Part shown: piece after piece, positions 8,873 to 24,519 of the stretch
How the letters are laid out: the number at the start of each line of letters is the position of its first letter
Numbering within the stretch: position 1 is the first letter of the stretch
NCBI GenBank assembly: GCA_964505425.1
Contig: CAZDHX010000004.1
Span: 17,722 to 81,721 of the forward strand
DNA: 64,000 nucleotides
DNA from: an uncultured Dehalococcoidales bacterium
GTDB taxonomy: Bacteria > Chloroflexota > Dehalococcoidia > Dehalococcoidales > BS750m-G39
Reading direction: 5' to 3'
Made by a program: the position numbers and the translations under genes
The notes under the pieces: generated by a model
Told to the model about the DNA's origin: nothing
What the model saw: the letters and a program-made list of their open reading frames with translations, nothing else
Databases searched by the model: none

Positions 8873-8936
8873 CGCTTTACTTTGGGCTCTACCCTTTGCA
8901 AAGGGCGGGCTTTCCAGCTAAAATAGGTATAATTGG

Positions 8937-9012: not shown

Positions 9013-9105
9013 CTCCCCACAATTTATCCCTGATACAGTAGCTCGAACCACTAGCAGGTGTGCACTCTCAGATGTCTTGAAGGCTTAGAACTTCCTTTGC
9101 TTATG

Positions 9106-10428
9106 TTACTGACTCATTATGCTTGGGAGCCAGAGGGCTATGTGGGGAAAGGCGATAATCAATGCTATCGCTGCTGCGCTTAGCCCAACAAAGGGAAAGC
9201 TGGCTCGATAGATGTCACCCATCGTGGTCGAAGGCGAGGCTACGCCTTTCATCACAAACAGGCTCAGACCAAAGGGTGGTGATATTTCTGCCATCGTCAA
9301 ATTGATAAGCATTATTACCGCGAACCACACTAGGTTGAAGCCCAGGGCAGTCAAAATGGGCACAAATAGAGGAATAGTGATCATCATTATCGAGACCGCC
9401 TCCATAAAGCAACCCATTATCAATACCACAACCATCATAGAGATGACGACGACAACGGGCGCCAGATGTAAACCTACTGTAAATTCGGTCAAGCTTGCCA
9501 TAGCCTGGCTAAAGACCAAGATTTGGCTAAAGGCCTTCGCGCCTATCAGGATCGTGAATATCATGACTGTAATCCGAAGAGTACCGAAAAAAGATTTCTT
9601 CAGCACTTCGAGATTCAGTTTTCCATGGATGGCAACCAGAATGAAGCAGCCGACAGCCCCGGTGGCTGCCGCCTCACTCGGCGTGGCTATACCCATGAAG
9701 ATAAGGCCAATAACCAGAAAGATAATAATTCCTCCCGGCAACACATAATGTACTGTGTCTACTAACCTATTTAATAAAGGGGTAGTAGACGGCTTATAGC
9801 GGGGAGCGATGGAAGGCTGGAGCCAGCATCTAAGGATAATATAGGCGAAATAAAGCGAGGCCATCAAGACCCCAGGAATAATGATAGCCATCAAAATCTT
9901 TCCAATGGAGATCATGGCCAAGCTACCTAAAAGGACACCTAGGACACTGGGGGGAATCATTACAGCCAAGCCGCCGCTGCCCAGAATAGGTCCCAGACTT
10001 ATGGACTTTTTGTAGCCACGCTTTTCCATCTCTGGCCCTAGTGTCGACCCCAGCACAGCTACACTGGCCATGCTAACACCACATAATGTTGAAAACAGAG
10101 CTCCTGCAATTACCGCTAACAAACTCAACCTACCAGGCAAAGGCCCTAGCCATTTATCCAGGACGTCTATGATATTGAGGCCTATCCCTGAGTGCAACAT
10201 CACTTCCCCCATCAGGATAAACATGGGCACTGCCACCAGAGCAAAAGTGACCACAGAATCATAGATGCTGCAGACGAGTTGCTCTATACCTCCCAAGCCA
10301 CCCCAGAAGACAATTACTCCTATGACATTTATGAGCATGAAGCTAAAAGCCACAGGCAGCCCTGAGAGCATCAGAACAGCTAACCCGCCGAAAATGCACA
10401 GCAGTACAAAATACCACTCCAACGACAT
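9106..10428 (-). CDS. dctM: TRAP transporter large permease (DctM family)
   Basis: 440-aa polytopic membrane protein adjacent to DctQ- and DctP-type genes. The hydrophobic N-terminus is typical of the DctM family. Confidence 0.85.
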   Translation of the reverse strand: MSLEWYFVLLCIFGGLAVLMLSGLPVAFSFMLINVIGVIVFWGGLGGIEQLVCSIYDSVVTFALVAVPMFILMGEVMLHSGIGLNIIDVLDKWLGPLPGRLSLLAVIAGALFSTLCGVSMASVAVLGSTLGPEMEKRGYKKSISLGPILGSGGLAVMIPPSVLGVLLGSLAMISIGKILMAIIIPGVLMASLYFAYIILRCWLQPSIAPRYKPSTTPLLNRLVDTVHYVLPGGIIIFLVIGLIFMGIATPSEAAATGAVGCFILVAIHGKLNLEVLKKSFFGTLRITVMIFTILIGAKAFSQILVFSQAMASLTEFTVGLHLAPVVVVISMMVVVLIMGCFMEAVSIMMITIPLFVPILTALGFNLVWFAVIMLINLTMAEISPPFGLSLFVMKGVASPSTTMGDIYRASFPFVGLSAAAIALIIAFPHIALWLPSIMSQ

Positions 10429-10463
10429 TCCCTCCTGTTTGTATGCATCTAGTGCATTGAAGT

Positions 10464-10985
10464 TTACGGTTCCTTATCCGGTGACACTCTCCAACTCCTC
10501 AGGTAGCCAAAACTTCTTCTCAGGAATTGGATTGAAAGGAGTAAGCTGCCTACAGGAATACAAGCAAACATAGGCCATGTAGGGGGTCGCAAGAGCGTCG
10601 CCGCATACCAGCCAATCTGGAAATGGTAGTAAGTGACCTTTACCCCATAGAAAGTAATAATCAAGAAGATGATTGCGCCAAAAATGGAAGTAGTAATATT
10701 AAGCAGACTCTGAGTTCTTGGGTTTAAACGGTTAAACACCACGTCTATTTTTACGTGCCCCTCCTCCTTTAATACCCAAGCACTACTCGAAAGAGTCAGC
10801 CCCAGTAGACAGTATGTGCAGACTTCTAACATCCAGTATATTGGACACGAAAAAAAATACCTCAGGATAATATCTGCTGTTATACCAAGCAACAGAAAAA
10901 TAAGGATAGCAATTCCAAGAAGAGCTGGGAGAAAAACTGCGCGATCCGCAATAAGGTCAAATTTCCTTAGCAGCTTCATCCTCAC
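10464..10985 (-). CDS. dctQ: TRAP transporter small permease (DctQ family)
   Basis: 173 aa with four predicted TM segments, positioned between the dctP and dctM homologues. Confidence 0.8.
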   Translation of the reverse strand: MRMKLLRKFDLIADRAVFLPALLGIAILIFLLLGITADIILRYFFSCPIYWMLEVCTYCLLGLTLSSSAWVLKEEGHVKIDVVFNRLNPRTQSLLNITTSIFGAIIFLIITFYGVKVTYYHFQIGWYAATLLRPPTWPMFACIPVGSLLLSIQFLRRSFGYLRSWRVSPDKEP

Positions 10986-11024
10986 TTACTACCTTCACAT
11001 TCCTTTAACACATAAAAAGCCCTT

Positions 11025-11067
11025 TTGAGGAGAATCACCTACTTCCCAAGAATAGGTGATTCTCCTC
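11025..11067 (-). other. Intercistronic stem-loop between the dctP-like and dctQ-like genes
   Basis: Perfect 16-bp inverted repeat tgaggagaatcaccta / taggtgattctcctca with an 11-nt loop, 63 nt downstream of the dctP stop. Confidence 0.6.
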
Positions 11068-11129
11068 ACCATTCTGTGTAGCAAAGTTCACAAACCTTGC
11101 CACAAGGTATATAAAAGCAGCCGCTACGT

Positions 11130-12179
11130 TTATTTTGTCAACAGCTGCTGAATTTGGGGCCCGAGGTCTGGCGGCAATACCTCTAGAAGGTAAGCCCACT
11201 CGGAGTCATAGCAAACTTTGTCTAGCCAAGCAGCATCCTCTGGCGAGACAGGAATAGGCTCCATTCCGTAGTCTAGCATTGCTTGCCACTCCTCATCCGC
11301 TAGCTCACCATATCTGGCATCAAAGTCCTTTTCTACCTCCGCCTTGGTCTCATCGAGCAAAATTTGCAGATGCTCAGGAAGGCTGTTCCAGGTATCCAGA
11401 TTTACTAGGACTGAAAAATCAGCTGAGAGGAACTTATAATCAAGGACATACTTCTCCACCTCATGAAAGCCATAACCCATATTTCCTACTATGGTCATGG
11501 CCCATCCATCCACTGTCCCGTGTTCCAGAGCAGTATATGCTTCCGAATAGTCTATACGGACGGGGGTAATTCCCAGCGCCTCCATGAAGTGGCGGGCAAT
11601 CGTTCCGTCACCGCAGGTTAGTCCAGCTAGGTCCGTCTTGGGGTCCTCAACCTTTTTGTTAAGATATAGAACGAAATACTCACCCGTCTGACCTTCCTTC
11701 CCTAACCAGTACAAACCGGCCTTCTCGTGCTCTGCCCGTATTAAGTCATAAGCCCCATTCTCTCGCATCTCCCAGGGCGGAATCTGTGCCTTCTGAAGCG
11801 CCTCACCTACCGGCACTAGCCCGGCATAAGCTCCAGGAAAAACATAGCACATATCAAGAACACCCTCCTGCACCGCTGCAGCCTGGGAAAAGCCTTCGAT
11901 CACTTCCGATCCACCCATCCAGTCAAGGACAAGCTCTCCATTAGCTCGTTCATTGACCCTGTCAACAAACATTTGATAGGCGATCATAAGCTTATTATCC
12001 TTGGGAAAGAGAGAACAACTCTTAAGCACTATCGGTTCGACCGTTACCCCTTCTTCTGGTGGTGCTCCTTCTGGTGCTGCTTCTTCCGCAGGAGCGCAAG
12101 CAATGGTGATGGGTAGTGTTGCCAATATTGATATTACACATATAATACCCAGCAGTACGATTAATCTCCTCTTTCTCAT
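11130..12179 (-). CDS. dctP: TRAP transporter solute-binding protein (DctP family), lipoprotein-type
   Basis: Signal peptide with lipobox-like LPITIAC followed by a low-complexity APEEAAPEGAPPEEG linker. 349 aa, next to the permease genes. Confidence 0.8.
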   Translation of the reverse strand: MRKRRLIVLLGIICVISILATLPITIACAPAEEAAPEGAPPEEGVTVEPIVLKSCSLFPKDNKLMIAYQMFVDRVNERANGELVLDWMGGSEVIEGFSQAAAVQEGVLDMCYVFPGAYAGLVPVGEALQKAQIPPWEMRENGAYDLIRAEHEKAGLYWLGKEGQTGEYFVLYLNKKVEDPKTDLAGLTCGDGTIARHFMEALGITPVRIDYSEAYTALEHGTVDGWAMTIVGNMGYGFHEVEKYVLDYKFLSADFSVLVNLDTWNSLPEHLQILLDETKAEVEKDFDARYGELADEEWQAMLDYGMEPIPVSPEDAAWLDKVCYDSEWAYLLEVLPPDLGPQIQQLLTK

Positions 12180-12257
12180 TTAAACCCTCCCAATTTAATA
12201 ATGAATATGAATAAAGCAAATCACCTCATCATCCACTCATCATCTAGCACCTCCTCT

Positions 12258-13691
12258 CTACACGTTCGGTTTACTCAGACCGTATTCTTCCCATCTATCC
12301 AGAACGCGCTTCGTCATATCTTCGTCAAGCGCGATTAAGATGGGCTTCTCTTTCCATTCATAGGGAGTGGTCGCGTCCATAATAATTCTCGAGACAATGT
12401 CACGCTGTCCGATAGGAAGCGACGGGTCAAGGACGGTAGACCGTCCCCTCTTGATGAGTTCCGTATCCCGCAGGGGGTCGTACCTAACGGAAAGCGCCCA
12501 GAATAATCTTCCAATATCATCCGCCGGGATATCAGCATCGACGACGATGACACCCTTTAACCCGTAGTGTCCTGTGGTTGTAGCGATTACTGCGTTGCCT
12601 ACTTGGTTGGCATGTCCCGCATACATCGTTTTCACTGAGACAATAGCCCAAAATCTTCCCGCTGATTCGGGTGGAGTATATACTGACTGGATACCGGGGA
12701 TCTTCATGTTCTCCAAGTCAGTCCATAGTGTGGCGGTGCGGTTAAGGCATTGAATCATATGGGCATCTGTAACCGGGTAACCTACTGTTGTTGCCCACAA
12801 AACCGGATTCTTGCGGGTTAGTATACGCTTAACGTTCAAGCATGGTTTCGGCATTAACTTGCCGGCTTCACCTGAATAATAACCAGTATATTCCCCAAAG
12901 GGCCCCTCCGGTTTAAAATTAAACGGGTCAATTTCCCCTTCTATGATGATCTCCGCATTTGCCGGGAGTTTCAGCCCAGTTAAATCGCTTTTGATTATAT
13001 CAGTGGGTTCACCCCGTAATGCTCCAGAGAGGTCATATTCATCCACTCCAGCTGAAACCATGGTGCTGCCGACAAGGAAGTCAAGGGGGTCACCCCCGAC
13101 TACGGCTGCTGCCGGCATAGGTTTCTTCATCTTTTCATACTTCTTCAAGTGGAAGTCAGCATGTTTGCCTTTAAGAATCTGTATTCCTACATTCTTCTCA
13201 TCTAGTATCTGCATACGATACGTTCCAAGATTAGTCCAACCTGTCTCTGGATCCTGGGTAATCAAATAGCAGGCTGTACCTATGTAACGCCCACCGTCTT
13301 GCGGGTAAAATTGTGGCGCTGGAAAATCAAAAACATTAATATCTTTCCCCTCTATGACCTTTTCCATAACTGGGCCGTCTTTTACCTCGATAGGTTTTAG
13401 CAAGCCCTTTGTGGCAATCTTCATCCATTCCCTAGCCATAGAGCACATAGAGGAGGTCGGTGACATACCCAAGCAAATGGCTAGCCTTTGTGGAGTGGTC
13501 AAAGCACTAGCCAAAAGTGGAATTTTGTAGCCTTTAATGTTTTCGAATAGTAGGGCGGGACCATAGTTTAGTTCATTCAATTTGGCTATATGGGAAATTT
13601 CCAAATTCCAGTCTACTTCGGCCTTGATTCTCTTCAGCGCTCCAACTTCTTCACAAGCCTGAATGAATTCTCCAAGACTTTTTATAGCCAC
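12258..13691 (-). CDS. UbiD-family (prFMN-dependent) reversible decarboxylase/carboxylase
   Basis: 477 aa. The N-terminus LGEFIQACEEVGALKRIKAEVDWNLEISHIAK...GPALLFENIKGY matches the UbiD family pattern. Confidence 0.85.
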   Translation of the reverse strand: MAIKSLGEFIQACEEVGALKRIKAEVDWNLEISHIAKLNELNYGPALLFENIKGYKIPLLASALTTPQRLAICLGMSPTSSMCSMAREWMKIATKGLLKPIEVKDGPVMEKVIEGKDINVFDFPAPQFYPQDGGRYIGTACYLITQDPETGWTNLGTYRMQILDEKNVGIQILKGKHADFHLKKYEKMKKPMPAAAVVGGDPLDFLVGSTMVSAGVDEYDLSGALRGEPTDIIKSDLTGLKLPANAEIIIEGEIDPFNFKPEGPFGEYTGYYSGEAGKLMPKPCLNVKRILTRKNPVLWATTVGYPVTDAHMIQCLNRTATLWTDLENMKIPGIQSVYTPPESAGRFWAIVSVKTMYAGHANQVGNAVIATTTGHYGLKGVIVVDADIPADDIGRLFWALSVRYDPLRDTELIKRGRSTVLDPSLPIGQRDIVSRIIMDATTPYEWKEKPILIALDEDMTKRVLDRWEEYGLSKPNV

Positions 13692-13711
13692 GACTGCATA
13701 CCTCCTTGCTT

Positions 13712-15010
13712 CTATTTTTTATTCTTGGCTGTACCTTTAAATTGAGCCAGCACTTCTTCCAGAGCATCAACCATTACCGAGGCGAATTCATAAGTATTCA
13801 AGTACAAGTCAACCTCTCTGATTTCAACCACATCCGAGTTTATCTCCTTCTTTAGAGTATCAATAAGCAACTTGTTAATTTCAGGCTGATAGAGACTTTG
13901 TCCTGCTTGGTCTGCGATGTGCCAGCCTTTCAAGGGGACCAAGAACTTGACTGGGGCCTTAGCTCGATTCAGCTTACTCGCCACAGCTTTGGCTATCTCC
14001 ACTGCCTCTTCAGCAGATATCTTCGCCGAGACTCTGAGGTCATCCATTGACCATAGCTTTCTTTCCTTAAGCCGCCTTTTCTCCCAGAGCGGGTCTCCTT
14101 TGTCTTTCCGGCTCATTGGGCCGCAACTGATTATGTCCAAGGAGCAGGGTGTTAATATTTGCGGAATCCCCATCTTACCGGCTGCCTCAAGCCTGGTCGG
14201 TATAGCAGCGCGGTTACCCCCCATCAGATATTCGCTTAAACCAGCCACGCACACATCTAAGACAGCATCGAATTTTGTTCCTGATTCAATAAGTTCTTCC
14301 ATGACAGAGTCGCCAATACCAGTACCGTGGAAAGTTATCACCTCGTAGTTGCCCTTACTCTTAAGAATAGTAATTATGTTAGCGCAGCATTGGGCCGAGT
14401 TTAGCTGGGTCATGGCTATTACCTTAGTGCCTGCTTTTTTGAGGTCATCAGTTTCTTCCGAAATGGGTCTGGCTCCACTTTCAACTGCGGCACATATCAT
14501 ATGAGCGGCCCGGATTATGCTGTTCTTCAGGAAAAGGTTCATAGAGTCTGTGTCGACCACGGTGGCAAACAACGCTATGTCACTTCTGCCGATGTAATTG
14601 TACTTGCCCATACCAGCCGTACTTGAAAGTATTAGTTTTGGGAAGCCAAATGGCAATTTCTGACAAACGTTTGAAGCCACCAAAGTATTCGTTGCGCCCC
14701 CCAATGCCACCAAGCCGTCGATTTTGCCCTCGTTCAACAGATCGCTAGCTATTTTAGTTGCACCTTTGGTAAATATCTCTTGCCTTTTTGCTCTTTCACC
14801 AGTTTCTCCCCTGGTATCTGAAGCACTACCGCCTCCAGCAAGGGCGACTTCTAAAGAAGATATGTCCGCTTTTAACTTAGGTTCTTTCAACATACTCAAG
14901 TCCATTACTAGTGGCTTGTGTCCCAGCTGGACTATACATTCGATAAGAAACTTGGCTGCTTCTCCTTTGGTATCGAGGCTAGCCATTACAAGGATATTCT
15001 TCTGGCCCAT
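13712..15010 (-). CDS. UPF0261 / Tm-1-like ATP-binding domain protein
   Basis: N-terminus ILVMASLDTKGEAAKFL and later IDGLVALGGATNT..FGFPKLILSS fit the UPF0261 family as I recall it. 432 aa. No partner PEP-hydrolase-like gene is seen nearby. Confidence 0.65.
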   Translation of the reverse strand: MGQKNILVMASLDTKGEAAKFLIECIVQLGHKPLVMDLSMLKEPKLKADISSLEVALAGGGSASDTRGETGERAKRQEIFTKGATKIASDLLNEGKIDGLVALGGATNTLVASNVCQKLPFGFPKLILSSTAGMGKYNYIGRSDIALFATVVDTDSMNLFLKNSIIRAAHMICAAVESGARPISEETDDLKKAGTKVIAMTQLNSAQCCANIITILKSKGNYEVITFHGTGIGDSVMEELIESGTKFDAVLDVCVAGLSEYLMGGNRAAIPTRLEAAGKMGIPQILTPCSLDIISCGPMSRKDKGDPLWEKRRLKERKLWSMDDLRVSAKISAEEAVEIAKAVASKLNRAKAPVKFLVPLKGWHIADQAGQSLYQPEINKLLIDTLKKEINSDVVEIREVDLYLNTYEFASVMVDALEEVLAQFKGTAKNKK

Positions 15011-15025
15011 TTCCTCCCACCTTTC

Positions 15026-16084: not shown

Positions 16085-16102
16085 GCTGCCACCTTATTAT
16101 GT

Positions 16103-17962: not shown

Positions 17963-18039
17963 CTTTCTCCCAAAACAAGATTATGGTCTCTTTCCCTCGG
18001 CCGTCCTGTGGCAGACCGGGCAGGACAGCCAGCTAATTT

Positions 18040-19110
18040 CTACGTAGACAAGCTAGGACCGGGCTCTCGTAACAAAGGTAACGTTACACAGCGGGCTCCA
18101 TTGGTACCAACTTGCATGCCGGAAGAATCAAATTCAATCACTTCTATTCCCGCTTTACGCACCTTGTCTATGGTTTTCTTGGCTTGAGCGGGCATGATTA
18201 CTTTACCTGGTTCAAGAAGAACACAATTCGCCGGCGCGAATTTATGGTGCTCCTCGGCGTCGACTTCTATGAGCTTAAAGTCTCTAGCCTTGAGCCATCT
18301 GAAAATCTGGTAATCCAGGTACCCTGGATAGATTAGGGCTACCCGTAGGTCAAGCACGCCGAAAATCATATCAATATGGAAGTCACCGCCAGCCCTATAA
18401 TCTTGGTAGGTAGTTGTACAACTTGCAACCGGGATTTCCTTGTAACCGGCCCGCTGTAGGACAGGGACTATTTGAGCTAGCCCTTCCTCGTTACAGGCAC
18501 AAGACCTGTATGCCATAATAGCGTCCTCAGCAACTGGCACAAATACGCCAGCCTCACAAACGCCTTTACCGTGTATGGATAGGAGAATGGGGCAGTTTAT
18601 GTCGGTAAAGAACTTTTGCCAATTAACCTCAAGCCCTCGCATGAAAGACGCTTGTCCCTGCCGGGAGATTATAGCCCCACCTCTCACTACCAGGGGTAAG
18701 GCCAGCATAAATAGCTTCCTCATCGGCCCATATGCCCCCATCGTCTCTGGAGTATCCATCCAATAAACTTCCACACCTTCTCTGTTCAGCAGCTCAGCGT
18801 ACTGGTCCATTGTTCTCTGCAGACTATCGATATCTATCGTTTCTCTTCGCAAGAGATAAAAATCCCTATTCTTTTCCCACAGCGGATTACTCTCATGCTT
18901 CGTTGGTTTAGCTAAAGCAACTGCCCTTAGTTTACCAATGCCCTGGGCACCCCAGTTCTTACCCCAGATTCTCTCGACCTCATCCAGATAATCAATTTGC
19001 TCTATTATCTCGGTATTAGGCGCTTTCCCCGGCTCATAATCGGGATAATTCTCCAGTGGGTAATCCTCGACTTTGCCCCGGTATTCCTTTTTGGGATTCT
19101 GGAATATCAT
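18040..19110 (-). CDS. Guanidino-group-modifying enzyme fold protein (amidinotransferase / arginine deiminase / DDAH superfamily)
   Basis: The C-terminal GTNGARCVTLPLLRE resembles the catalytic-Cys motif that ends ADI/amidinotransferase family proteins. 356 aa. Assigned from motif recognition only. Confidence 0.5.
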   Translation of the reverse strand: MIFQNPKKEYRGKVEDYPLENYPDYEPGKAPNTEIIEQIDYLDEVERIWGKNWGAQGIGKLRAVALAKPTKHESNPLWEKNRDFYLLRRETIDIDSLQRTMDQYAELLNREGVEVYWMDTPETMGAYGPMRKLFMLALPLVVRGGAIISRQGQASFMRGLEVNWQKFFTDINCPILLSIHGKGVCEAGVFVPVAEDAIMAYRSCACNEEGLAQIVPVLQRAGYKEIPVASCTTTYQDYRAGGDFHIDMIFGVLDLRVALIYPGYLDYQIFRWLKARDFKLIEVDAEEHHKFAPANCVLLEPGKVIMPAQAKKTIDKVRKAGIEVIEFDSSGMQVGTNGARCVTLPLLREPGPSLST

Positions 19111-19156
19111 CCTAACCTCCTTATTGAAGCGAGAGAGTTGACACCTTGCTACCTAT

Positions 19157-20185
19157 TTAAGAAGATGGCCGTTTCGACTTTGCCTCCTCAATTTCCTTCA
19201 GGTTCAGTTTCATGATTCTCGCTACATTCTTGTAACACATTAAATCAGCCTCTTCCTGGCTAAAATCATAGCCATACCGACTGGCGATCTCGGGCAAGTT
19301 TCGGAACAGATCGCACCATTCTTTAAGGATCTCAGCGGGGAAAGTGGGCATATCGGTGCCAAAGAGGATGTTGGCACATCCGCCAATTAACGTATTACGC
19401 ATAACGTCGAGCATATCAATGAAATCGGGGGTATGATCCTTGTATTTGCCTTTGCTTCCACGGAACCCACCTTTTATAACTGTAGGTGCCACCTGCCCCA
19501 TTTCAAGATTGATATTCGGAATATACCTAGCGGCAACGCACATCTCCTGCCATAGCTCCCCAATGCCGCCACCGGCATGAGCAGCGATAAACTCTAACTC
19601 GGGAAAATCTAGGGCTGCTTCTTCAAGATGGACAGGGTTAGCATATTTCGAGTATCTAAAAATACCGGCTCCCGTATGGACATTGACCGGTACTCCAAGC
19701 TCAAGGCATTTTTCGTAAAGCGGATAACATATCCTATCATTTGGATAGAAGCCGGTATGGGGAAGCAGTTTTAATCCTAAAGCACCCCACTCTTTGACAC
19801 CCTTCTCAAGAAGCTCAACCGCTGCCTTTCCTCGTAACGGGTTCACACCAATAAACGTATAGAACTTACCCTTGAGCCTTTTCGACCATTGACAGTATTC
19901 GAAATTAATCTCCTCAACGGACATCGGAGCCTCGTCACCAGCAAATCCCTCAGCACTACCGAAGTCGTTTGTCACATTAACACAAGCATCAATGCCACAG
20001 CTCTCCATAATCTTGATCCATCGTTCTGCGCCGGGGTCGAAATAATGTGGACGCGACTTCGCAAGCCATTCGTCAATAGTACCGAAGGGTAACTCCTTTC
20101 TGGATTCTCTCCATGCCATCGAACGCAAGAACCAATTCGGGAGCATCTCGCGAATCCAGACATGGCAATGAGCATCAATTAACAT
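19157..20185 (-). CDS. Amidohydrolase_2-family metal-dependent hydrolase/decarboxylase
   Basis: N-terminal IDAHCHVW metal-binding motif and later HTGAG, AHAGGG and FGTDMP. 342 aa. Confidence 0.7.
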   Translation of the reverse strand: MLIDAHCHVWIREMLPNWFLRSMAWRESRKELPFGTIDEWLAKSRPHYFDPGAERWIKIMESCGIDACVNVTNDFGSAEGFAGDEAPMSVEEINFEYCQWSKRLKGKFYTFIGVNPLRGKAAVELLEKGVKEWGALGLKLLPHTGFYPNDRICYPLYEKCLELGVPVNVHTGAGIFRYSKYANPVHLEEAALDFPELEFIAAHAGGGIGELWQEMCVAARYIPNINLEMGQVAPTVIKGGFRGSKGKYKDHTPDFIDMLDVMRNTLIGGCANILFGTDMPTFPAEILKEWCDLFRNLPEIASRYGYDFSQEEADLMCYKNVARIMKLNLKEIEEAKSKRPSS

Positions 20186-20220
20186 CTTTACCTCCTAAGA
20201 TTTTGTCTCGCTCTCATTAC

Positions 20221-20688
20221 TTATTCTTGTTTCCCCACCACAGCCTGGATAGCCTCAACGATTTTGGCATAGCCGGTACAGCGGCAGATATTGCCCGAGA
20301 GTGCTTTCCTGATTTCAGCCTCGGTCGGGTTAGGGTTTTCCTCCAGAAATGCTTTGGTGAATAATATCATGCCCGGAGTACAAAAACCGCATTGCACAGC
20401 CCCATGGTCGATAAAGGCTTTTTGGATGGGATGTAGATCCCCATTCTTAGCCAGGCCTTCAATAGTCGTTATGTTCCTGTTCCTGACACTAACAGCTAAG
20501 GTCAGGCAGGACCGTATTGGTTTACCGTCGAGAAGGACAGTGCAAGCCCCACACTTTCCGGTATCACAGCCATGCTTGGTGCCAGTGAGCCCCAGCCTTT
20601 CCCTAAGCACAAACATTAGTGTGTCACTGGGCTTTACTGTAACCTCATAAGGTTGTTCGTTGACAATGAGGTTTATTATCTGTCTCAA
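20221..20688 (-). CDS. Molybdenum hydroxylase small subunit, two [2Fe-2S] (CoxS/HcrC-like)
   Basis: Motifs GCDTGKCGACTV and CGFCTPG...CRCTGY. 155 aa. Confidence 0.9.
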   Translation of the reverse strand: MRQIINLIVNEQPYEVTVKPSDTLMFVLRERLGLTGTKHGCDTGKCGACTVLLDGKPIRSCLTLAVSVRNRNITTIEGLAKNGDLHPIQKAFIDHGAVQCGFCTPGMILFTKAFLEENPNPTEAEIRKALSGNICRCTGYAKIVEAIQAVVGKQE

Positions 20689-20690
20689 GT

Positions 20691-21554
20691 TTATCCTCCT
20701 ACCTCGGTATTCATGCAGGACGTCAGGGCTCTCATTGTGAGGACATAGGCCATCTGTTTTCGGTACTCGGCACTCGCCCTGACATCTGATATCGGGCTGC
20801 AGTCTTCCATGGCGAGCCGTGCCGCCTTGTCTATCGTGGCTTCGCTGATAGCTTTGCCAATAAGGGCCTCCTCGGCTTTTTTAGCTCTCAAGGGCGTTGG
20901 AAATACTGAGCCCAGAGCTATACGAGCACTGTCGAATCGGCTATTCTTCATGCTGACTAATGTAGCTACCGACACCACGGCCAGGTCAGATATTGACCTT
21001 GTCCCGAACTTTATGTATCCCCATCGGGCAGTTGTTGAAGGTAAAGGTATTTGGACTTCAGTAAGTATCTCATTTGGTTTCATTACTGTGTTGCCGGGTC
21101 CGGTAAAGAACTCCTCTACCGGCACCGTCCTGGTGCCGCCCAGTCCCGCTATATTCACTCTTGCTGATAATGCAATAAGGGGCGCCGGGGTATCGGCTCC
21201 CGGTGAAGCATTGCACAGGTTGCCTCCCAGGGTAGCCATATTGCCTATGGTAATCGAGGCGAATTGCTCAGCAACTTGGACAATCTGGGGACATACCCGC
21301 TTAAGCTCCGTTGACTTGGCTATCGACTGCATGGTAGTGGTCGCCCCGATTCTTATCACGTCCTCACAGCTGATGTAGGCGAGTCCAGGTACAGCTTTAA
21401 GGTCTATAATGTGCTTGGGCTTTCTAGTGTTCATTATCATCCTTATCACCAGGTCGGTACCACCAGCCATTACCTTCACCGACTCCTTGTGCTTATCGAG
21501 CAGGGAGATGGCTTCACTGACGGTTTGGGGCTCAAGATACTCAAAATCCTGCAT
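20691..21554 (-). CDS. Molybdenum hydroxylase FAD-binding medium subunit (CoxM/HcrB-like)
   Basis: Motifs AGGTDL and ATLGGNL and the CO-dehydrogenase flavoprotein C-terminal region. 287 aa. No Cys-rich insertion is present. Confidence 0.85.
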   Translation of the reverse strand: MQDFEYLEPQTVSEAISLLDKHKESVKVMAGGTDLVIRMIMNTRKPKHIIDLKAVPGLAYISCEDVIRIGATTTMQSIAKSTELKRVCPQIVQVAEQFASITIGNMATLGGNLCNASPGADTPAPLIALSARVNIAGLGGTRTVPVEEFFTGPGNTVMKPNEILTEVQIPLPSTTARWGYIKFGTRSISDLAVVSVATLVSMKNSRFDSARIALGSVFPTPLRAKKAEEALIGKAISEATIDKAARLAMEDCSPISDVRASAEYRKQMAYVLTMRALTSCMNTEVGG

Positions 21555-21555
21555 G

Positions 21556-23964
21556 CTACTTCCCTTCCTTTACCGCTAGCGCTTTCAAGATGGGCTCGCC
21601 TGAGATGGGCGGTATCTTGATTCTGACACCGACCGCGTCATACACGGCGTTGGCTATTGCCGGTGCAACTGAGCCTATACCTGCCGATTCACCCCCTCCT
21701 TTACACCCGTAGGCAAATCCAGGCTCAATGGACTCGATAAAAATCTTCTGAATAGGAGGCACGTTGGTCGCTAGAGGCACTTTGTAGTCATCGAAGTTGG
21801 GGTTAATGATTTTACCCGTCTTGCCGTCGACCATTATTCCTTCCATCAGCGCGGCTCCGATGCCCTGGGTTGTGGCGCCGTCTACCTGGCCTTCGAGTTG
21901 TTGCCGGTCAATGACCTTGCCGCAGTCGTCGGCTACTACTACATTTAGCAGTTTCACCAGTCCGGTCTCTTTATCGACCTCAACCTCAGCTATTACTGCA
22001 TCGTAGTAAGTGGCGTCGACACCACGGCCGTAGTGGGTCGAATGGCTGCTCTTAAGAATGTACTCGGTTTCAAGCCGCTCCTCTACTCCCTTGCCTACAA
22101 TCATCGAGCCTTCCCGCCTATGAACAGCGTAGTTCCCAATTTCAGCTAAAGTAAGTGATTTCTTCGGCTCGCCAACAACACTCACTTTACCCTTTTTGAA
22201 CTCTAGCTTATCCGGTGCTATGCCCAACATTAGCGAGGCGGTCTCAATTATCTGTTTCTTGGTGTCCTGACAGGCTAAATATGTCGCATTTACCCCCTGT
22301 GACATGATTCTTGAGCCGTGAGCACCCCATCCCCAGGGGACCCGGTCCGTGTCCTGCGGTACTAACTCGATATTTTCCAATGGTACGCCAAGCTCTTCAG
22401 CAACCACCATGGCAAAGGCGTTATGCACTCCCTGGCCATACTCGGCCTCACCAACCAGCAACTGTACTCCGCCATCCTCAAGCAGCTTGACATGAGCGAC
22501 ACTTCCGTAGAAACCGTCCGACGCCCGGTCATCAGTTTCGTGGCACATGCAGCCGATGCCTATACCTATGTTAGCCTGCTTATTTGCCCTCTTTTCCTTC
22601 CATCCTGCCGCCTCGGTCGCCTTCTTGATGCAGTCAGTAAATCCGCAGCTCCTGATAAACCACCCGGCGGGCGTAATGTCACCGGTTTGCGTAGCGTTCT
22701 TGAGCCTCAACTCTGCTGGGTCCATCCCCAGCTTTTCAGCCAATATGTCCATGAGCGATTCACGTGCCCAGGACATCTGAGCATCCCCGAAGCTCCGATA
22801 CGTACCGGGAGGTGTCTTATTGGTATAAATATTCTTGAAGGTGTGTCTTACATTCTTAAACCTGTAAAGAGCATCATTGCGTTCAAGCATGTGAAGTGAC
22901 CGGCGGTGCATCAGGTACTGAAAGGCGCCATTGTCCACCAAAATATCGGTAATCTCGGTGGTTAAGGTACCATCTTTCTTAGCGCTGAGCTTCATCCGTA
23001 TCGTCATATCGCCACGCGAGCGAATCAGCATGAAATCTTCAGTGCGTGTCCTGATTAGTTTTACCGGTCTTGCCGTCTTCATCGAGAGCAGAGCGGCAAT
23101 ATGGTGTAACTGAAGTGCGGTGAATTTGGAGCCAAAAGCCCCACCCACCGCCTCCTGGATAACTCTGAGCTTGGAGAGAGGGAGCCTGAGGTTATGAGCA
23201 ATCACATCCCGTATGTTAGATGGCCACTGGTTGCCTACCCAGAGAGTCAACTTCCCTGTCCCGATGTCATAGTCAGCAACACACCCTTGCGGCTCCATGT
23301 AGGCCGCCACCACATTGGTATATTTGAACTCATCTTCGACAACAATGTCCGCTTCTTTTAAGCCTTGTTCTACATTGCCCCGGTCATAAGTGACCCCCCA
23401 TGCGATGTTGTTCTTGATTTTGACCGGCTGGTAGGTTATCTGGTCTTTGTTGAGTTCAAATATCTCGTCATGTACCTGCGGCGCCCCTGGTTTCATGGCA
23501 TCGTCTACATTGAATACGCCGGGCAGTTCTTCGTATTTGACCTTTATCAACTCCAGTGCTTGCTCGGCTATCGCTTCGTCCGTCGCAGCTACAGCAGCGA
23601 CCTCCTGACCAACAAATCTCACTTTGCCGTCCCAGGCTAATATCGGTTCGTCCTTGACATCAATGCCTGGGTTATACATTCCATGGACATCCTTGCCCGT
23701 TATAACCGCCTTGACGCCAGACAGTTGCTCTGCCTGACTGGTGTCGATGGAGAGGATTCTGGCATGAGCGTACGGCGACCTCAGCACTTTAGCATACAGC
23801 ATACTTGGTGACAACACATCATCAGTGTATCTGGCTTTCCCAGTCGTTTTGCTCTTGGCGTCAATCCTACTGACTCTTGTACCAATCACGCTATAAGTGT
23901 CTTTGCGTTGGGTCCAATAACTTATTCTGTCTTTAACTTCGTCAGTCAGTACTTTGTCGTCCAT
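21556..23964 (-). CDS. Molybdopterin-binding large subunit of a xanthine dehydrogenase / aldehyde oxidase family enzyme (CoxL/HcrA-like)
   Basis: 802 aa. N-terminal a/b-hammerhead pattern (VIGTRVSRIDAKSKTTGKARYTDD), GGAFGSK, and a C-terminal GGGESAG motif. Confidence 0.85.
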   Translation of the reverse strand: MDDKVLTDEVKDRISYWTQRKDTYSVIGTRVSRIDAKSKTTGKARYTDDVLSPSMLYAKVLRSPYAHARILSIDTSQAEQLSGVKAVITGKDVHGMYNPGIDVKDEPILAWDGKVRFVGQEVAAVAATDEAIAEQALELIKVKYEELPGVFNVDDAMKPGAPQVHDEIFELNKDQITYQPVKIKNNIAWGVTYDRGNVEQGLKEADIVVEDEFKYTNVVAAYMEPQGCVADYDIGTGKLTLWVGNQWPSNIRDVIAHNLRLPLSKLRVIQEAVGGAFGSKFTALQLHHIAALLSMKTARPVKLIRTRTEDFMLIRSRGDMTIRMKLSAKKDGTLTTEITDILVDNGAFQYLMHRRSLHMLERNDALYRFKNVRHTFKNIYTNKTPPGTYRSFGDAQMSWARESLMDILAEKLGMDPAELRLKNATQTGDITPAGWFIRSCGFTDCIKKATEAAGWKEKRANKQANIGIGIGCMCHETDDRASDGFYGSVAHVKLLEDGGVQLLVGEAEYGQGVHNAFAMVVAEELGVPLENIELVPQDTDRVPWGWGAHGSRIMSQGVNATYLACQDTKKQIIETASLMLGIAPDKLEFKKGKVSVVGEPKKSLTLAEIGNYAVHRREGSMIVGKGVEERLETEYILKSSHSTHYGRGVDATYYDAVIAEVEVDKETGLVKLLNVVVADDCGKVIDRQQLEGQVDGATTQGIGAALMEGIMVDGKTGKIINPNFDDYKVPLATNVPPIQKIFIESIEPGFAYGCKGGGESAGIGSVAPAIANAVYDAVGVRIKIPPISGEPILKALAVKEGK

Positions 23965-24001
23965 TTTCTCCTCAATTCTACTTTTAACTGCACCTCACCT
24001 T

Positions 24002-24040
24002 CCGAAAAAGAATAGAGCCAATTGCATAATTGGCTCTATT
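24002..24040 (-). terminator. Intrinsic-terminator-like hairpin (or palindromic operator) in the leader of the Mo-hydroxylase operon
   Basis: Perfect 13-bp arms aatagagccaatt / aattggctctatt (24011-24023 and 24028-24040) with a 4-nt loop. On the minus strand the hairpin is followed by CTTTTTCGG, and it ends 47 nt upstream of the start codon at 23964. Confidence 0.55.
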
Positions 24041-24121
24041 CACCATAGGGTATATCCGTTCATGTTCTTTTGCTGTATCATAATGATAATCAGATAAGAA
24101 TATCACAAATGCTTAGCATCC

Positions 24122-24149
24122 ATTCTACCACACTATCGGGCATTGTCAA
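24122..24149 (-). promoter_or_regulatory. Sigma-70-type promoter for the 23964..9106 operon
   Basis: Minus strand reads TTGACA (24149-24144), a 16-nt spacer, then TAGAAT (24127-22) preceded by TGg (extended -10). Confidence 0.6.
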
Positions 24150-24519
24150 GCCCCTAGCGTATCGAATCTAATCACTTACTTAACAAAGAGACGAGTTCCT
24201 GGGGAGTAGGGAATTCTTTTGAGGGGACAACATGTCTTCCCGGTGAAGTCGTTGTCGTTGCAGCCGAAGTTATCGGCATACGCATCGATCAGACCTTTGC
24301 TAATATACATAATAGCATAGGCATAGCGGATAGCAATACTCTCCCTACTTTGCGGAATACTCACCAAGATATGCCGGAACAGTGGGGGAGGTTAATACTC
24401 ACGAGTATATTCTTATTTGACAAAAGATTAAGATTTTTATAAAGAATTTTATGAACCAGTGGAAAATGCTTCTATGAAGTGCTAAAATGAAATATTACAA
24501 TAAATGGTGGGAAATGTAT

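Follow-up and report, generated by a model that had tools for sequence, protein, structure and literature searches.

A twelve-gene operon of an uncultured Dehalococcoidales bacterium: a possible oxygen-independent route for N-containing aromatic compounds built on a phosphorylation–carboxylation core

The sole characterised cluster with the same core as the operon considered here is the ani cluster of Desulfatiglans anilini (H567DRAFT_03866–03876), which comprises a CoxL homologue, PasB, a UPF0261 protein, an acyl-CoA synthetase, PasA and PpcB (Xie et al. 2020, PMC7500099). Its UPF0261 protein (H567DRAFT_03869) is encoded between PasB and the acyl-CoA synthetase (PMC7500099, supplement). The ani proteins, UPF0261 included, were abundant on aniline and 4-aminobenzoate, and TRAP binding proteins were also induced (PMC7500099). 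A further related system is the set of phenylphosphate synthase PpsABC and phenylphosphate carboxylase PpcABCD of the Thauera aromatica type, a typical cluster of which is present at locus L007. Among individual proteins, MarK (Saro_1862, Novosphingobium aromaticivorans, PDB 9MPY), described in 2025, is an aromatic kinase of the UPF0261 family that phosphorylates phenolic aromatics while converting ATP to ADP, whereas Tm-1, likewise a characterised member of this family, works through ATP-bridged binding and not through catalysis (PMC12624787). NnhA of Mycobacterium sp. JS330 (PDB 9AZG) is a 2-nitroimidazole nitrohydrolase, whose authors advise against function transfer under 50% identity (PMC11659421).

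Compared by its published description, the ani cluster shares with the operon a Mo large subunit of the XDH/CODH family, the two subunits of the dikinase, UPF0261, a PpcB-type UbiD and an associated aryl-CoA ligase, and likewise belongs to a strict anaerobe; however, its gene order differs, and a sigma-54 response regulator and the acyl-CoA synthetase lie inside it. TRAP genes are part of the operon, whereas in-cluster TRAP genes are not described for ani, and neither an NnhA-like nor an Amidohydro_2 gene occurs among the ani genes of the main text or H567DRAFT_03866–03872, 03875, 03876 and 03877 (PMC7500099). The phenol type has in common with the operon the split phospho-histidine dikinase and the PpcB-type UbiD, the proteins of L007 being 40–50% identical to their operon counterparts; PpsC, PpcA, PpcC, PpcD (HAD) and UbiX are all missing from the operon, which adds UPF0261, a Mo enzyme, two hydrolases and a TRAP system.

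Organization and distribution of the operon

The window, i.e., the whole analyzed stretch of 64,000 nucleotides, contains the operon together with the following features, given in the order of transcription of the operon:

24487–25011, plus strand: MarR-family regulator, 174 aa (MarR_2, HTH_27, MarR), divergent from the operon
24122–24149, minus strand: sigma-70-type promoter candidate (TTGACA-16-TAGAAT with extended TG; consensus match only)
24010–24041, minus strand: 14-bp perfect inverted repeat with a 4-nt loop, then TTTTT, in the 5' leader of the operon
21556–23964, minus strand: XDH/CODH-family molybdopterin large subunit, 802 aa (Ald_Xan_dh_C, MoCoBD_1, MoCoBD_2)
20691–21554, minus strand: FAD-binding medium subunit, standard type, 287 aa (FAD_binding_5, CO_deh_flav_C)
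20221–20688, minus strand: [2Fe-2S] small subunit, 155 aa (Fer2, Fer2_2)
19157–20185, minus strand: Amidohydrolase_2 metal-dependent hydrolase/hydratase/decarboxylase-superfamily protein, 342 aa (PF04909, 92 bits)
18040–19110, minus strand: NnhA-like cysteine hydrolase of the ADI/DDAH (guanidino-group-modifying) superfamily, 356 aa
16103–17962, minus strand: PpsA-like dikinase alpha subunit, 619 aa (substrate-binding N-terminal part, phospho-histidine swivel domain)
15026–16084, minus strand: PpsB-like ATP-grasp dikinase beta subunit, 352 aa (PPDK_N, 350 bits)
13712–15010, minus strand: UPF0261/Tm-1-like protein, MarK relative, 432 aa (UPF0261 N- and C-terminal domains)
12258–13691, minus strand: PpcB-type UbiD-family (de)carboxylase, 477 aa (UbiD_N/UbiD/UbiD_C)
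11130–12179, minus strand: TRAP solute-binding protein DctP, 349 aa (PF03480, NF037995)
10464–10985, minus strand: TRAP small membrane subunit DctQ, 173 aa (PF04290, 81 bits)
9106–10428, minus strand: TRAP large membrane subunit DctM, 440 aa (PF06808, 258 bits)
8937–9012, plus strand: tRNA-Gly, directly past the last gene of the operon

The original prediction described twelve minus-strand ORFs running from 23964 down to 9106, and the ORF listing was identical; the gaps recomputed from the ORF coordinates (1, 2, 35, 46, 77, 18, 15, 20, 78, 144 and 35 nt) were the same as those claimed, and domain searches agreed with the product families proposed for all twelve genes. The gene set is real, lies on the same strand and is closely packed, and no convincing internal terminator was found in a scan of the region, the gaps of 35–77 nt included. 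The near-consensus promoter predicted at 24149–24122 was also present: it matches 11 of the 12 consensus positions and is the top-scoring site in 8800–24600. The first start codon follows 158 nt downstream, and the intergenic region that holds the site is A+T-rich and 522 bp long (G+C 0.40). It should be noted that promoter-like sites as a class were not enriched in the operon region (25 found versus 20.5 ± 4.8 expected), so the support for this site lies in its position and quality only.

The MarR gene, the leader hairpin, the tRNA-Gly gene and a dip in G+C content are additional observations absent from the original prediction. The G+C content was 0.44–0.49 over approximately 9–20 kb versus 0.50–0.57 in the flanks, with a step from ~0.46 to ~0.51 at the Mo genes. 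The hairpin (24041–24010) was present in the MFE and centroid folds alike, had no match in Rfam and could possibly serve as an attenuator or a MarR operator. Judging from position alone, the divergent MarR-family gene (24487–25011) likely regulates the operon. An aryl-CoA ligase gene of the benzoate-CoA-ligase family (at 7307) lies 234 nt past the operon end in convergent orientation; since it is on the other strand and the tRNA gene lies between, it represents a separate transcription unit. Equivalogs of BzdN, BzdO and BzdQ and a second activase-type ATPase are encoded at 55.6–59.9 kb, with a PaaX-like regulator also within 55.6–60.8 kb. A link of the operon to the ligase and the Bzd-type genes is plausible.

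The identical twelve-gene arrangement was not found in a collection of 5.8 billion proteins, 185,579 species genomes or JGI metagenomes. Consequently, of the claim that the operon matches no described pathway, the part concerning the gene order stands, whereas the core is already described in the ani cluster. The nearest relative was metagenome contig L002, which carries 10 of the 12 genes (37–72% identity) and lacks both the Amidohydro_2 and the NnhA-like gene. On L002 and L003, the genes of PpsA, PpsB, UPF0261 and UbiD follow in the same order (core identity 64–72%), and a TRAP system as well as an XDH-type Mo enzyme is encoded alongside; the identity of the kinase/UbiD/TRAP block of L002 was 40–72%. 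In contrast, the Mo large and medium subunits of L002 were just 37–40% identical, and its Mo genes are arranged M-S-L instead of L-M-S. This divergence and reordering, together with the higher G+C content of the Mo genes, indicate that their association with the operon may be recent or fortuitous.

Kinases, UbiD and TRAP system

The dikinase alpha subunit passed model NF006153 (632 bits, cut-off 578), has a PEP-utilizers domain at residues 543–613 with the phospho-histidine motif GGVMSHAAIVCRE (His577), and matched PEP-synthase models only over its last ~100 residues; no PEP/pyruvate-binding C-terminal domain was detected in the domain search. The proposed assignment to the split PpsA/PpsB type, as opposed to PEP synthase, is thereby supported. 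Among the matches listed, a single close relative of the alpha subunit had 67% identity and the rest had 42% or less. PasA was not among its best 120 matches, all of at least 37% identity; the sequence comparison suggests that the dikinase is not of the PasA type. The beta subunit was 64% identical to its L002 homologue and 43–47% identical to those of L005–L008, of which L007 and L008 bear the phenol-type cluster.

The UPF0261 protein shares the two-domain fold of MarK over its full length (28% identity to 9mpy). Its residues D13-T14-K15 align with D14-T15-K16 of the MarK ATP site and His228 with the phenol-binding His219, whereas other pocket positions differ (H304→R, H348→A, F283→I and I285→S). 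In its aerobic host, MarK supplies a biotin-dependent carboxylase that acts on side chains; the protein of the operon belongs to an anaerobe and has a UbiD ring carboxylase as its partner. In seven of eight contexts of relatives with at least 52% identity, UPF0261 lay within four genes of UbiD, often without a dikinase and usually along with XDH-type Mo enzymes or TRAP/TTT transporters; at L118, the two occur together with Amidohydro_3 and creatininase. The recurrent neighbourhood of UPF0261 and a PpcB-like UbiD is a new observation. The view of UPF0261 as an odd insert between the Mo enzyme and the dikinase did not hold, given its presence in the ani cluster and its proximity to UbiD in related contigs.

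The UbiD scored 612.5 bits against TIGR02724 (phenylphosphate carboxylase beta; cut-off 468.95), compared with 188 for PpcA, 291 for VdcC and 220 for ubiquinone UbiD (NF008175, cut-off 788), which confirmed a PpcB-type protein and not ubiquinone UbiD. Phylogenetically, it was grouped in a clade with the UbiDs of L002, L009, L010 and L013, to which the UbiD of the phenol-type cluster L007 was sister; thus, it falls outside the phenol-type UbiDs. No gene for UbiX, PpcC/D or PpsC was found among the annotated ORFs of the window. DctP has a lipoprotein-like N-terminus with a ITIACAPAEEAAPEG linker, and its top PDB match was 4mnc/4mni (E = 1.7 × 10−30); 4mnc, its best solved relative, was presumably crystallised with an aromatic 2-oxo acid. 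DctM was 60% identical to its L002 homologue.

Molybdenum enzyme and hydrolase pair

The best NCBIfam model of the Mo large subunit was 4-hydroxybenzoyl-CoA reductase (4-HBCR) alpha, with 534.8 bits, far under the cut-off of 994.55 (XdhA model, 507 bits), and its top PDB match was 1rm6_A (E = 2.5 × 10−105). The CODH loop VAYRCSFR is missing from this subunit and replaced by TYRSFGDAQ, while the C-terminal Glu in GGGESAG is retained. Like the enzyme of the operon, HcrABC (PDB 1RM6) consists of Mo, FAD and 2Fe-2S subunits and is its best solved large-subunit relative; however, HcrABC has a ~40-residue 4Fe-4S insertion in its FAD subunit, and the enzyme of the operon falls under all three NCBIfam equivalog cut-offs. 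The 4Fe-4S loop defines the reverse electron flow of 4-HBCR. In the FAD subunit of the operon it is absent, according to both the model alignment and Cys inspection: the alignment to the HcrB model TIGR03195 breaks at approximately residue 115 (125 bits, cut-off 405), and the five Cys residues are scattered (63, 88, 114, 252 and 280). The FAD subunits of the operon, L002, L009 and L010 (287, 293, 289 and 302 aa, respectively) are too short to accommodate the HcrB insertion, which favours a hydroxylase-type Mo enzyme. The small subunit has eight Cys residues in two canonical clusters. The suggested reductive, 4-HBCR-like role is thus weakened, although it keeps a place, since 4-HBCR alpha is the closest solved relative of the large subunit.

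The Amidohydro_2 protein contains the ligand motifs H6-x-H8, H170, H203 and D278; its best PDB matches, all weak, were the uncharacterised BB4693, the hydratase LigJ and the hydrolase LigY, so that the suggested leaning toward decarboxylases found no particular affinity behind it. The ADI/amidinotransferase fold proposed for the next product can be narrowed to a specifically NnhA-like protein: it aligned with 9azg over the full length (E = 4 × 10−44, 31% identity), and all catalytic residues are retained (C341, H245, E186, D247 and N295, aligning with NnhA C357, H260, E197, D262 and N311), i.e., both share the Cys nucleophile, the His-Glu base, the Asp and the Asn. In contrast, the second pocket Cys of NnhA (C352) is Thr in the operon protein, and the genomic contexts differ, the host here being an anaerobe. 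At L038, an Amidohydro_2 homologue (83% identity) lies directly upstream of an NnhA-like gene (78% identity), and next to this conserved pair are genes for UbiD and for the large subunit of a Mo enzyme. Among 80 metagenome loci, NnhA-like genes repeatedly had an XDH-type Mo enzyme no more than 10 kb away (13 loci), and their immediate neighbours included Amidohydro_1/3, creatinase/M24, CN_hydrolase, a DPD-like reductase and NMT1-type binding proteins. Thus, NnhA-like genes elsewhere keep company with XDH-type Mo enzymes and N-heterocycle hydrolases.

Possible route and alternative explanations

The explanation we tentatively prefer, with somewhat less than even confidence, is that the operon encodes an oxygen-independent route for an N-containing (hetero)aromatic compound, a variant of the phenylphosphate/phenylphosphoamidate strategy. 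The sequence shows how the genes are ordered, to which domains and families their products belong, which catalytic residues are kept and which neighbourhoods recur; from these we infer the enzymatic steps. All twelve genes would belong to one catabolic operon of a strict anaerobe with a Bzd-type benzoyl-CoA reductase, and the divergent MarR-family gene probably encodes the regulator of the operon. A carboxylate-bearing substrate or intermediate would be imported by the TRAP system; the NnhA-like hydrolase would act at an amidine-type carbon of the ring and displace its amino or nitro group, and Amidohydro_2 would hydrolyse or decarboxylate a ring intermediate. The XDH-type Mo enzyme, with its ordinary FAD subunit, would most likely be a water-dependent hydroxylase and not a 4-HBCR-type reductase. 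The ring OH (lactim/phenol) or NH2 exposed by the hydrolases and the Mo enzyme would be phosphorylated by one or both kinases, namely, the PpsAB-like dikinase (ATP to AMP + Pi) and the MarK-like UPF0261 protein (ATP to ADP), and the PpcB-type UbiD would carboxylate the ring via the aryl phosphate or phosphoamidate. The product may then gain CoA from the neighbouring benzoate-CoA-ligase-family enzyme and enter BzdNOPQ. Several points count against this reading: to our knowledge, phosphorylation-driven carboxylation of an N-heteroaromatic lactam has no precedent; 4-HBCR alpha is the nearest solved relative of the Mo large subunit; the Mo genes may have joined the operon recently or by chance; L002 lacks both hydrolase genes; D. 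anilini and Thauera require two UbiD-type subunits, whereas the operon encodes one; UbiX, PpcC/D and PpsC are missing among the annotated ORFs of the window; and the dikinase does not seem to be of the PasA type.

A benzenoid pathway of the ani/phenol type appears doubtful. Aniline, aminophenol or phenol would be converted to an aryl phosphate or phosphoamidate and carboxylated in the para position, or 4-amino- or 4-hydroxybenzoate would be taken up by the TRAP system; the neighbouring ligase would form the CoA ester, from which the Mo enzyme would reductively strip the para OH or NH2, yielding benzoyl-CoA for BzdNOPQ. The hydrolases would have no other task than to set free the arylamine or phenol, the precursors being N-substituted or nitro compounds. 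The core shared with ani, the UbiD score above the PpcB cut-off, the top matches of the Mo large subunit to 4-HBCR alpha, the nearby genes of the ligase, the Bzd proteins, the second activase-type ATPase and the PaaX-like regulator, and the presumed aromatic ligand of 4mnc are consistent with such a pathway. However, no 4Fe-4S loop is present in the FAD subunit, the large subunit reaches only 535 of the required 995 bits, the dikinase alpha subunit is at most 42% identical to any named PasA or PpsA among the matches listed, the relatives of the hydrolases occur in N-heterocycle and not arylamine contexts, and the ligase gene, beyond the tRNA gene, is a convergent unit of its own.

It is unlikely that the operon is a mosaic whose co-transcribed blocks act on different substrates, an XDH-type hydroxylase and the N-heterocycle hydrolase pair having recombined onto an independent kinase/UbiD/TRAP module. 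The block shared with L002, where the Mo genes are non-orthologous and reordered and the hydrolase pair is missing, the separate travel of this pair on L038 and the G+C step at the Mo genes would fit such an origin. On the other hand, Mo enzymes turn up near UPF0261/UbiD (L002, L009 and L010) and, independently, near NnhA-like genes (13 loci), a recurrence that speaks for a functional connection between the blocks; moreover, the hydrolase pair, UbiD and the Mo large subunit are all present on L038, and the 35–77 nt gaps contain no convincing terminator. Operation in the decarboxylation direction seems very unlikely: the TRAP system would import a hydroxy- or amino-aromatic acid, UbiD would decarboxylate it, and the kinases would trap or re-route the phenolic product, or else UPF0261 would be a non-catalytic ATP-binding partner of UbiD or the dikinase. 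Characterised UbiD enzymes in the match list are mostly decarboxylases, TRAP/TTT carboxylate importers go with UPF0261/UbiD pairs, and Tm-1 offers a model of ATP-bridged binding (PMC12624787); however, the PpcB-type UbiDs form the branch that carboxylates, two ATP-consuming kinases after an exergonic decarboxylation would be energetically senseless, and both the catalytic Lys and the phenol-binding His of MarK are kept.

Whichever substrate is used, the phosphorylate-then-carboxylate core is the known part, familiar from phenol and aniline breakdown. The new part is the twelve-gene combination, which adds to this core a second kinase, a Mo enzyme and two C–N-cleaving enzymes and which, in the route tentatively preferred here, may serve the oxygen-independent use of an N-containing (hetero)aromatic compound.

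Layout of the operon and its surroundings

The ORF listing bore out the twelve minus-strand ORFs predicted from the sequence alone (23964 down to 9106), and recomputation returned the same eleven gaps between them (1, 2, 35, 46, 77, 18, 15, 20, 78, 144 and 35 nt). The predicted order of products likewise agreed with the Pfam and NCBIfam matches.

Products of the operon (9106-23964, minus strand) in order of transcription
Genes 1-3: large (L, Mo), medium (M, FAD) and small (S, 2Fe-2S) subunits of an XDH/CODH-family molybdenum enzyme
Gene 4: Amidohydro_2 protein
Gene 5: ADI/DDAH-fold protein
Gene 6: 619-aa protein ending in a PEP-utilizers domain (PpsA-like dikinase alpha subunit)
Gene 7: 352-aa PPDK_N protein (PpsB-like dikinase beta subunit)
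Gene 8: two-domain UPF0261 protein
Gene 9: UbiD
Genes 10-12: DctP, DctQ and DctM

Other features of the window
934-5763: HdrA-like FAD/Fe-S protein (661 aa, plus strand) and NAD-binding/DHODB-type Fe-S, Fer4_22 and FrhB-like Fe-S proteins (minus strand)
7307-8872, convergent with the operon: benzoate-CoA-ligase-family protein
8937-9012, plus strand: tRNA-Gly(UCC)
24010-24041, minus strand: hairpin of two perfectly inverted 14-bp arms around a 4-nt loop, followed by TTTTT
24149-24122, minus strand: candidate promoter, TTGACA-16-TAGAAT with an extended TG
24487-25011, divergent from the operon: MarR-family gene
55626-59923, minus strand: BzdQ, BzdO and BzdN equivalogs and a second activase-type ATPase
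56577-57407, minus strand: protein above cut-off only on the acyl-CoA dehydratase activase domain model
55626-60818, minus strand: whole Bzd block, with a PaaX-like regulator directly upstream of the Bzd genes

The candidate promoter, already proposed in the original prediction, was the best match in the region; promoter-like matches as a class were not enriched in the operon region, and no convincing internal terminator was found within the operon. The divergent MarR-family gene had not been part of that prediction, and neither had the leader hairpin, the tRNA gene or the lower G+C content. The hairpin at 24010-24041, which falls in the 5' leader downstream of the candidate promoter and ahead of the first start codon, could serve as an attenuator or a MarR operator. 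A comparison of the leader with Rfam gave no match at E <= 1 and none at gathering score, and a riboswitch or other known RNA was rejected. The operon is bordered by the tRNA, ligase, MarR and epimerase genes, with the tRNA gene between the ligase gene and the operon's 3' end. The tRNA gene, together with a G+C content of 0.44-0.49 over approximately 9-20 kb against 0.50-0.57 in the flanks, hints at horizontal acquisition. An integrative island at tRNA-Gly was rejected: both an att-like direct repeat and an integrase were absent, leaving only the lower G+C content.

The three Dct genes make up a full TRAP transporter set (Pfam). The N-terminus of DctP (11130-12179, minus strand) resembles a lipoprotein signal (…ITIAC) and leads into a Pro/Glu/Ala-rich linker, which suggests that this binding protein is tethered to the membrane and not free in the periplasm; the ligand of its nearest solved relative (PDB 4mnc) is probably benzoylformate.

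Because the gene of the ligase (628.8 bits, cut-off 375) points towards the operon, with the tRNA gene in between, it is a transcription unit of its own. The anticipated benzoyl-CoA-reductase-like enzyme at 55.6-59.9 kb was recovered, with the NCBIfam models for BzdN, BzdO and BzdQ all above cut-off, and by these matches the block looks like a class I (ATP-dependent) benzoyl-CoA reductase in an apparent strict anaerobe. Housekeeping genes of the chromosome (ftsA/Z, glnA, dxs, pgk, MTHFR, FdhA-like and HdrA-like genes) fill the remainder of the window. From this surrounding gene content, the host is an anaerobic aromatic degrader. Close to the operon, the genes at 934-5763 may encode a redox module that is electron-bifurcating or linked to ferredoxin.

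Dikinase, UbiD and UPF0261

The dikinase is of the split PpsA/PpsB type. The beta subunit consists of PPDK_N only, whereas the alpha subunit carries the PEP-utilizers domain at residues 543-613, has no PEP-utilizers_C domain, i.e., no PEP/pyruvate-binding TIM barrel, and scores 632 bits on NF006153 (cut-off 578). The catalytic histidine of the swivel domain is retained (GGVMSHAAIVCRE, His577; His569 in Thauera). A bona fide PEP synthase, which would be one three-domain polypeptide of ~790 aa above the cut-offs of TIGR01418 / NF005057, was rejected: on the PEP-synthase models the beta subunit reached 348-360 bits and the alpha subunit 86-89 bits, against cut-offs of 598-740, each with partial model coverage, and the PEP-synthase and rifampicin-phosphotransferase models matched the alpha subunit only in its last ~100 residues. 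No gene for PpsC, the third, stimulating subunit, was found in the operon, which holds no further ORF, or among its four neighbours; PpsC is likewise absent in Desulfatiglans anilini (PMC7500099). One relative of the alpha subunit shares 67% identity and all others no more than 42%, and none of the best 120 matches (all at least 37% identical) is PasA-like; on these comparisons the dikinase is probably not of the PasA type.

The single UbiD of the operon matched TIGR02724 (phenylphosphate carboxylase beta) over its full length with 612.5 bits (cut-off 468.95), compared with 188 for PpcA, 291 for VdcC and 220.5 for ubiquinone-type UbiD (NF008175, cut-off 788); solved AroY, HmfF and VdcC-type enzymes were much weaker matches. 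A ubiquinone-biosynthesis UbiD, which like a true PEP synthase would have spoken against the original prediction, was rejected on the NF008175 score, and the enzyme is PpcB-type. Among the annotated ORFs of the window (all but about a dozen of those of at least 150 aa), neither a second UbiD subunit (alpha, or beta2 as in D. anilini) nor a HAD-type delta subunit was detected. In the operon, the phenylphosphate carboxylase set (PpcABCD), which needs a second UbiD-type, a small gamma and a HAD-type delta subunit, is incomplete. In the neighbour-joining tree, the UbiD of the window grouped with those of four related loci (L002, L009, L010 and L013), and this clade was sister to the UbiD of L007, a typical phenol-type cluster.

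The UPF0261 protein aligns end to end with the aromatic kinase MarK (PDB 9MPY; 28% identity), the first UPF0261 protein for which an activity has been demonstrated, namely the phosphorylation of phenolic aromatics with conversion of ATP to ADP (PMC12624787). The D-T-K motif of the MarK ATP site (Lys16) and the phenol-oxygen ligand His219 correspond to D13-T14-K15 and His228, which are invariant or nearly so across the clade alignment. In contrast, the residues of the acetovanillone pocket (His304, His348, Phe283 and Ile285) are replaced by Arg, Ala, Ile and Ser, with Arg in place of the stacking His of MarK. At 52% identity or more, UPF0261 proteins of this clade were found in eight distinct contexts, i.e., the window, its closest relative L002/L003 and the six listed below.

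Gene contexts of the UPF0261 clade outside the window and L002/L003
P0126 contig: UPF0261, UbiD, DctP, metallo-beta-lactamase
L009: two XDH-type Mo sets, four UbiDs, two UPF0261 genes
L010: Mo M-S-L, UPF0261, TctBAC, UPF0261-UbiD
P0127 contig: UbiD, DctQ, DctM, UPF0261
L118: ABC transporter, Amidohydro_3, creatininase, UbiD, PaaK-like ligase, MFS, UPF0261
Woeseiaceae MAG (L011/L012): UPF0261 with no related neighbours

A UbiD gene lies within four genes of UPF0261 in seven of the eight contexts, often with no dikinase. The L009 contig (JGI 3300033145, Ga0366840_1001511) holds its UbiD and UPF0261 genes within 18 kb, together with two XDH-type Mo large subunits (one with M and S), DMSO-reductase-family and metallo-beta-lactamase genes, and this stretch is a dense, uncharacterised island of aromatic carboxylation/decarboxylation. 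More distant UPF0261 genes (36-44% identical) adjoin PpsA/PpsB-like genes in MAGs of Syntrophorhabdales and Syntrophaceae. In the syntrophic aromatic degraders of loci L014, L016, L017, L021 and L035 (Syntrophorhabdales and delta-proteobacterial MAGs) and L020 (Syntrophorhabdus aromaticivorans UI), UPF0261 genes (35-41% identical) and PpsA/PpsB-like dikinase genes are no more than 10 kb apart, an arrangement similar to PasB-UPF0261 of D. anilini.

The aniline-induced ani cluster of D. anilini (aniline/4-aminobenzoate; H567DRAFT_03866-03876) encodes a CoxL homologue (03866), PasB (03868), an acyl-CoA synthetase (03870), PasA (03871) and PpcB (03872); 03869, drawn as uncharacterised, is a UPF0261-family protein in the proteome table, and the aniline-induced proteins include TRAP binding proteins (PMC7500099). 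Compared by gene content only, the ani cluster and the window share co-located Mo large subunit, PasB-like, UPF0261, PasA-like and PpcB-like genes. Because the same kinds of genes occur there, the core of Mo subunit, split dikinase, UPF0261 and PpcB-type UbiD has a published, partly characterised precedent. UPF0261 thus belongs to this core as a regular member and is no intruder. The claim that the operon matches no described pathway holds only in part: the core logic is known from phenol and aniline and the core gene set from D. anilini, whereas the full 12-gene arrangement, the hydrolase pair and TRAP system within the operon and the hydroxylase-type Mo enzyme have no characterised counterpart. 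In this weaker form, the idea of an undescribed pathway still stands.

A scan of 185,579 species genomes by UPF0261 alignment revealed no copy of the cluster (best match 52%, Woeseiaceae, with unrelated neighbours). Its closest relative, L002/L003, is one metagenome contig seen twice, in which Mo M-S-L precedes PpsA-PpsB-UPF0261-UbiD in the same order as in the window (67, 64, 71 and 72% identity), with a DUF1989 gene and DctMQP (40-60% identity) on the opposite strand. It differs in lacking both hydrolases and in its Mo enzyme, whose L and M subunits are only 37-40% identical to those of the window and whose gene order is different. The DUF1989 gene (12266-12928, minus strand) stands where the window has the hydrolase pair; the family presumably includes carboxyguanidine deiminase subunits, and the protein would be another C-N hydrolase in a matching position.

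Molybdenum enzyme and hydrolase pair

Among solved structures, the alpha subunit of 4-hydroxybenzoyl-CoA reductase (4-HBCR, HcrABC) is nearest to the Mo large subunit. All three 4-HBCR equivalog cut-offs were missed (alpha 534.8 against 994.55, beta 125.3 against 404.55, gamma 192.4 against 257.8). The 287-aa FAD subunit, in which the match to the HcrB model is interrupted at about residue 115, is devoid of the 4Fe-4S insertion that lets 4-HBCR work reductively; its five cysteines (63, 88, 114, 252 and 280) are scattered and form no cluster. Membership in 4-HBCR was rejected on the missing Fe-S loop and the missed cut-offs, and aerobic CO dehydrogenase on the absence of the active-site loop VAYRCSFR from the large subunit, where the aligned segment (PPGTYRSFGDAQ) has no Cys insertion. 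Since the FAD subunit is ordinary, the enzyme is most likely a water-dependent hydroxylase, judging by its sequence.

The ADI-fold protein is a full-length relative of the 2-nitroimidazole nitrohydrolase NnhA (E 4e-44). All five catalytic residues of NnhA (PMC11659421; nucleophile Cys357, base His260/Glu197, Asp262 and Asn311) are retained as C341, H245, E186, D247 and N295, while the second pocket cysteine, Cys352, is replaced by Thr; the identity of 31% is below the limit of more than 50% set by the NnhA authors for inferring activity (PMC11659421). The Amidohydro_2 protein has a complete set of metal-ligand motifs. Its assignment as an aromatic decarboxylase was not specifically supported, the PDB matches being weak and confined to the LigJ hydratase, the LigY hydrolase and an uncharacterised protein.

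In the related locus L038, an Amidohydro_2 gene (83% identical) lies directly upstream of an NnhA-like gene (78%), followed by a divergent UbiD gene and a Mo large subunit gene; on this evidence the two hydrolases are a conserved unit. The NnhA-like family has approximately 200 detectable members. In at least 13 of 80 metagenome loci, the NnhA-like gene has XDH-type Mo genes no more than 10 kb away, and the commonest families among 140 immediate neighbours were Amidohydro_1/3, ABC transporters, XDH-type Mo domains, creatinase/M24, GntR-FCD regulators, NMT1-type binding proteins and Amidohydro_2. Next to the closest homologues (74-76%; metagenome contigs L040 and L043) lie a DPD-like DHO_dh-Fer4 reductase, a branched-chain-type ABC importer and Amidohydro_3, a context suggestive of an undescribed N-heterocycle pathway of reductive/hydrolytic type; the neighbours of a 61% homologue are an NMT1 binding protein, Amidohydro_1, CN_hydrolase and UbiD. 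These neighbourhoods are signatures of the catabolism of N-heterocycles or ureido compounds and not of a benzenoid amine.

Reconstructed route and its meaning

The leading reading, to which we give somewhat less than an even chance, is that the operon serves the oxygen-independent breakdown of an N-containing aromatic or N-heteroaromatic compound. The NnhA-like enzyme would replace an amino or nitro group on an amidine-type carbon with water, the Amidohydro_2 protein would hydrolyse or decarboxylate an intermediate, and the Mo enzyme would hydroxylate with water. The exposed OH or NH2 would then be phosphorylated by the dikinase, the MarK-like kinase or both, after which the PpcB-type UbiD would carboxylate the ring. 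The TRAP system would import the acid substrate or an intermediate, and the product may pass on to the neighbouring ligase and BzdNOPQ. Directly supported are the operon-like anatomy, the family memberships, the conserved catalytic residues and the repeated independent co-localisation of three component pairs (UPF0261 with PpcB-like UbiD; both of these with XDH-type Mo enzymes and carboxylate importers; NnhA-like with XDH-type Mo enzymes). In a speculative scheme accommodating all genes, a 2-amino- or 2-nitro-benzazole would be hydrolysed at C2 and the cyclic urea opened to an arylamine, which would be phosphorylated, carboxylated, CoA-activated and deaminated.

A benzenoid route of the aniline or phenol type with a reductive Mo enzyme has the shared ani core and the structural proximity to 4-HBCR on its side; the ordinary FAD subunit and the character of the NnhA-like neighbourhoods weigh the other way, and we consider it unlikely, if a serious candidate. 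The step in G+C content at the Mo genes and the different partners of the core in L002/L003 could be expected of a recombinational mosaic that serves no single pathway, an explanation made improbable by the recurrent pairs and the short intergenic gaps. Least probable of all is a decarboxylative role of the UbiD or a non-catalytic one of UPF0261: the ATP-site and oxygen-ligand residues of MarK are kept in UPF0261, and the UbiD is PpcB-type.

Returning to the oxygen-free route, the most interesting by-product of the analysis is the UPF0261/PpcB-like UbiD pairing. We propose, as a doubtful but possible extension, that MarK-type UPF0261 and this UbiD clade form an unrecognised two-gene system of (hetero)aryl carboxylation, coupled here to a hydroxylase and hydrolases as an undescribed oxygen-free route. 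By analogy with MarK, it would activate a ring OH or NH2 for one ATP to ADP, versus ATP to AMP + Pi for the dikinase. In the operon, it would be joined to the water-dependent Mo hydroxylase, the NnhA-like enzyme and Amidohydro_2, and the substrate would be N-heteroaromatic or amino-aromatic, speculatively a 2-amino- or 2-nitro-azole or benzazole that is opened to an arylamine and then carboxylated. Beyond the D. anilini and MarK papers, the literature yielded nothing linking UPF0261 or Tm-1-like proteins with UbiD, or a combined pathway.

To activate phenol or aniline, anaerobes spend two ATP equivalents, and how energy-limited sulfate reducers and syntrophs afford it is an open problem according to the D. 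anilini authors (PMC7500099). The conserved pairing of an ADP-forming-type kinase with the carboxylase, taken with the activity of MarK, suggests a cheaper activation route. Phosphorylation-driven UbiD carboxylases are also of applied interest in enzymatic CO2 fixation onto aromatics. The association of NnhA-like, XDH-type Mo and UbiD genes points to oxygen-independent degradation of N-heterocycles, with azole drugs, pyrimidine- or pyridine-type compounds and aromatic amines as candidates, for which, to our knowledge, almost no anaerobic genes have been described. If true, the proposed two-gene system would explain the aniline-induced "hypothetical" protein of the only characterised ani cluster and would mean that the widespread UPF0261 family has a second role in physiology.
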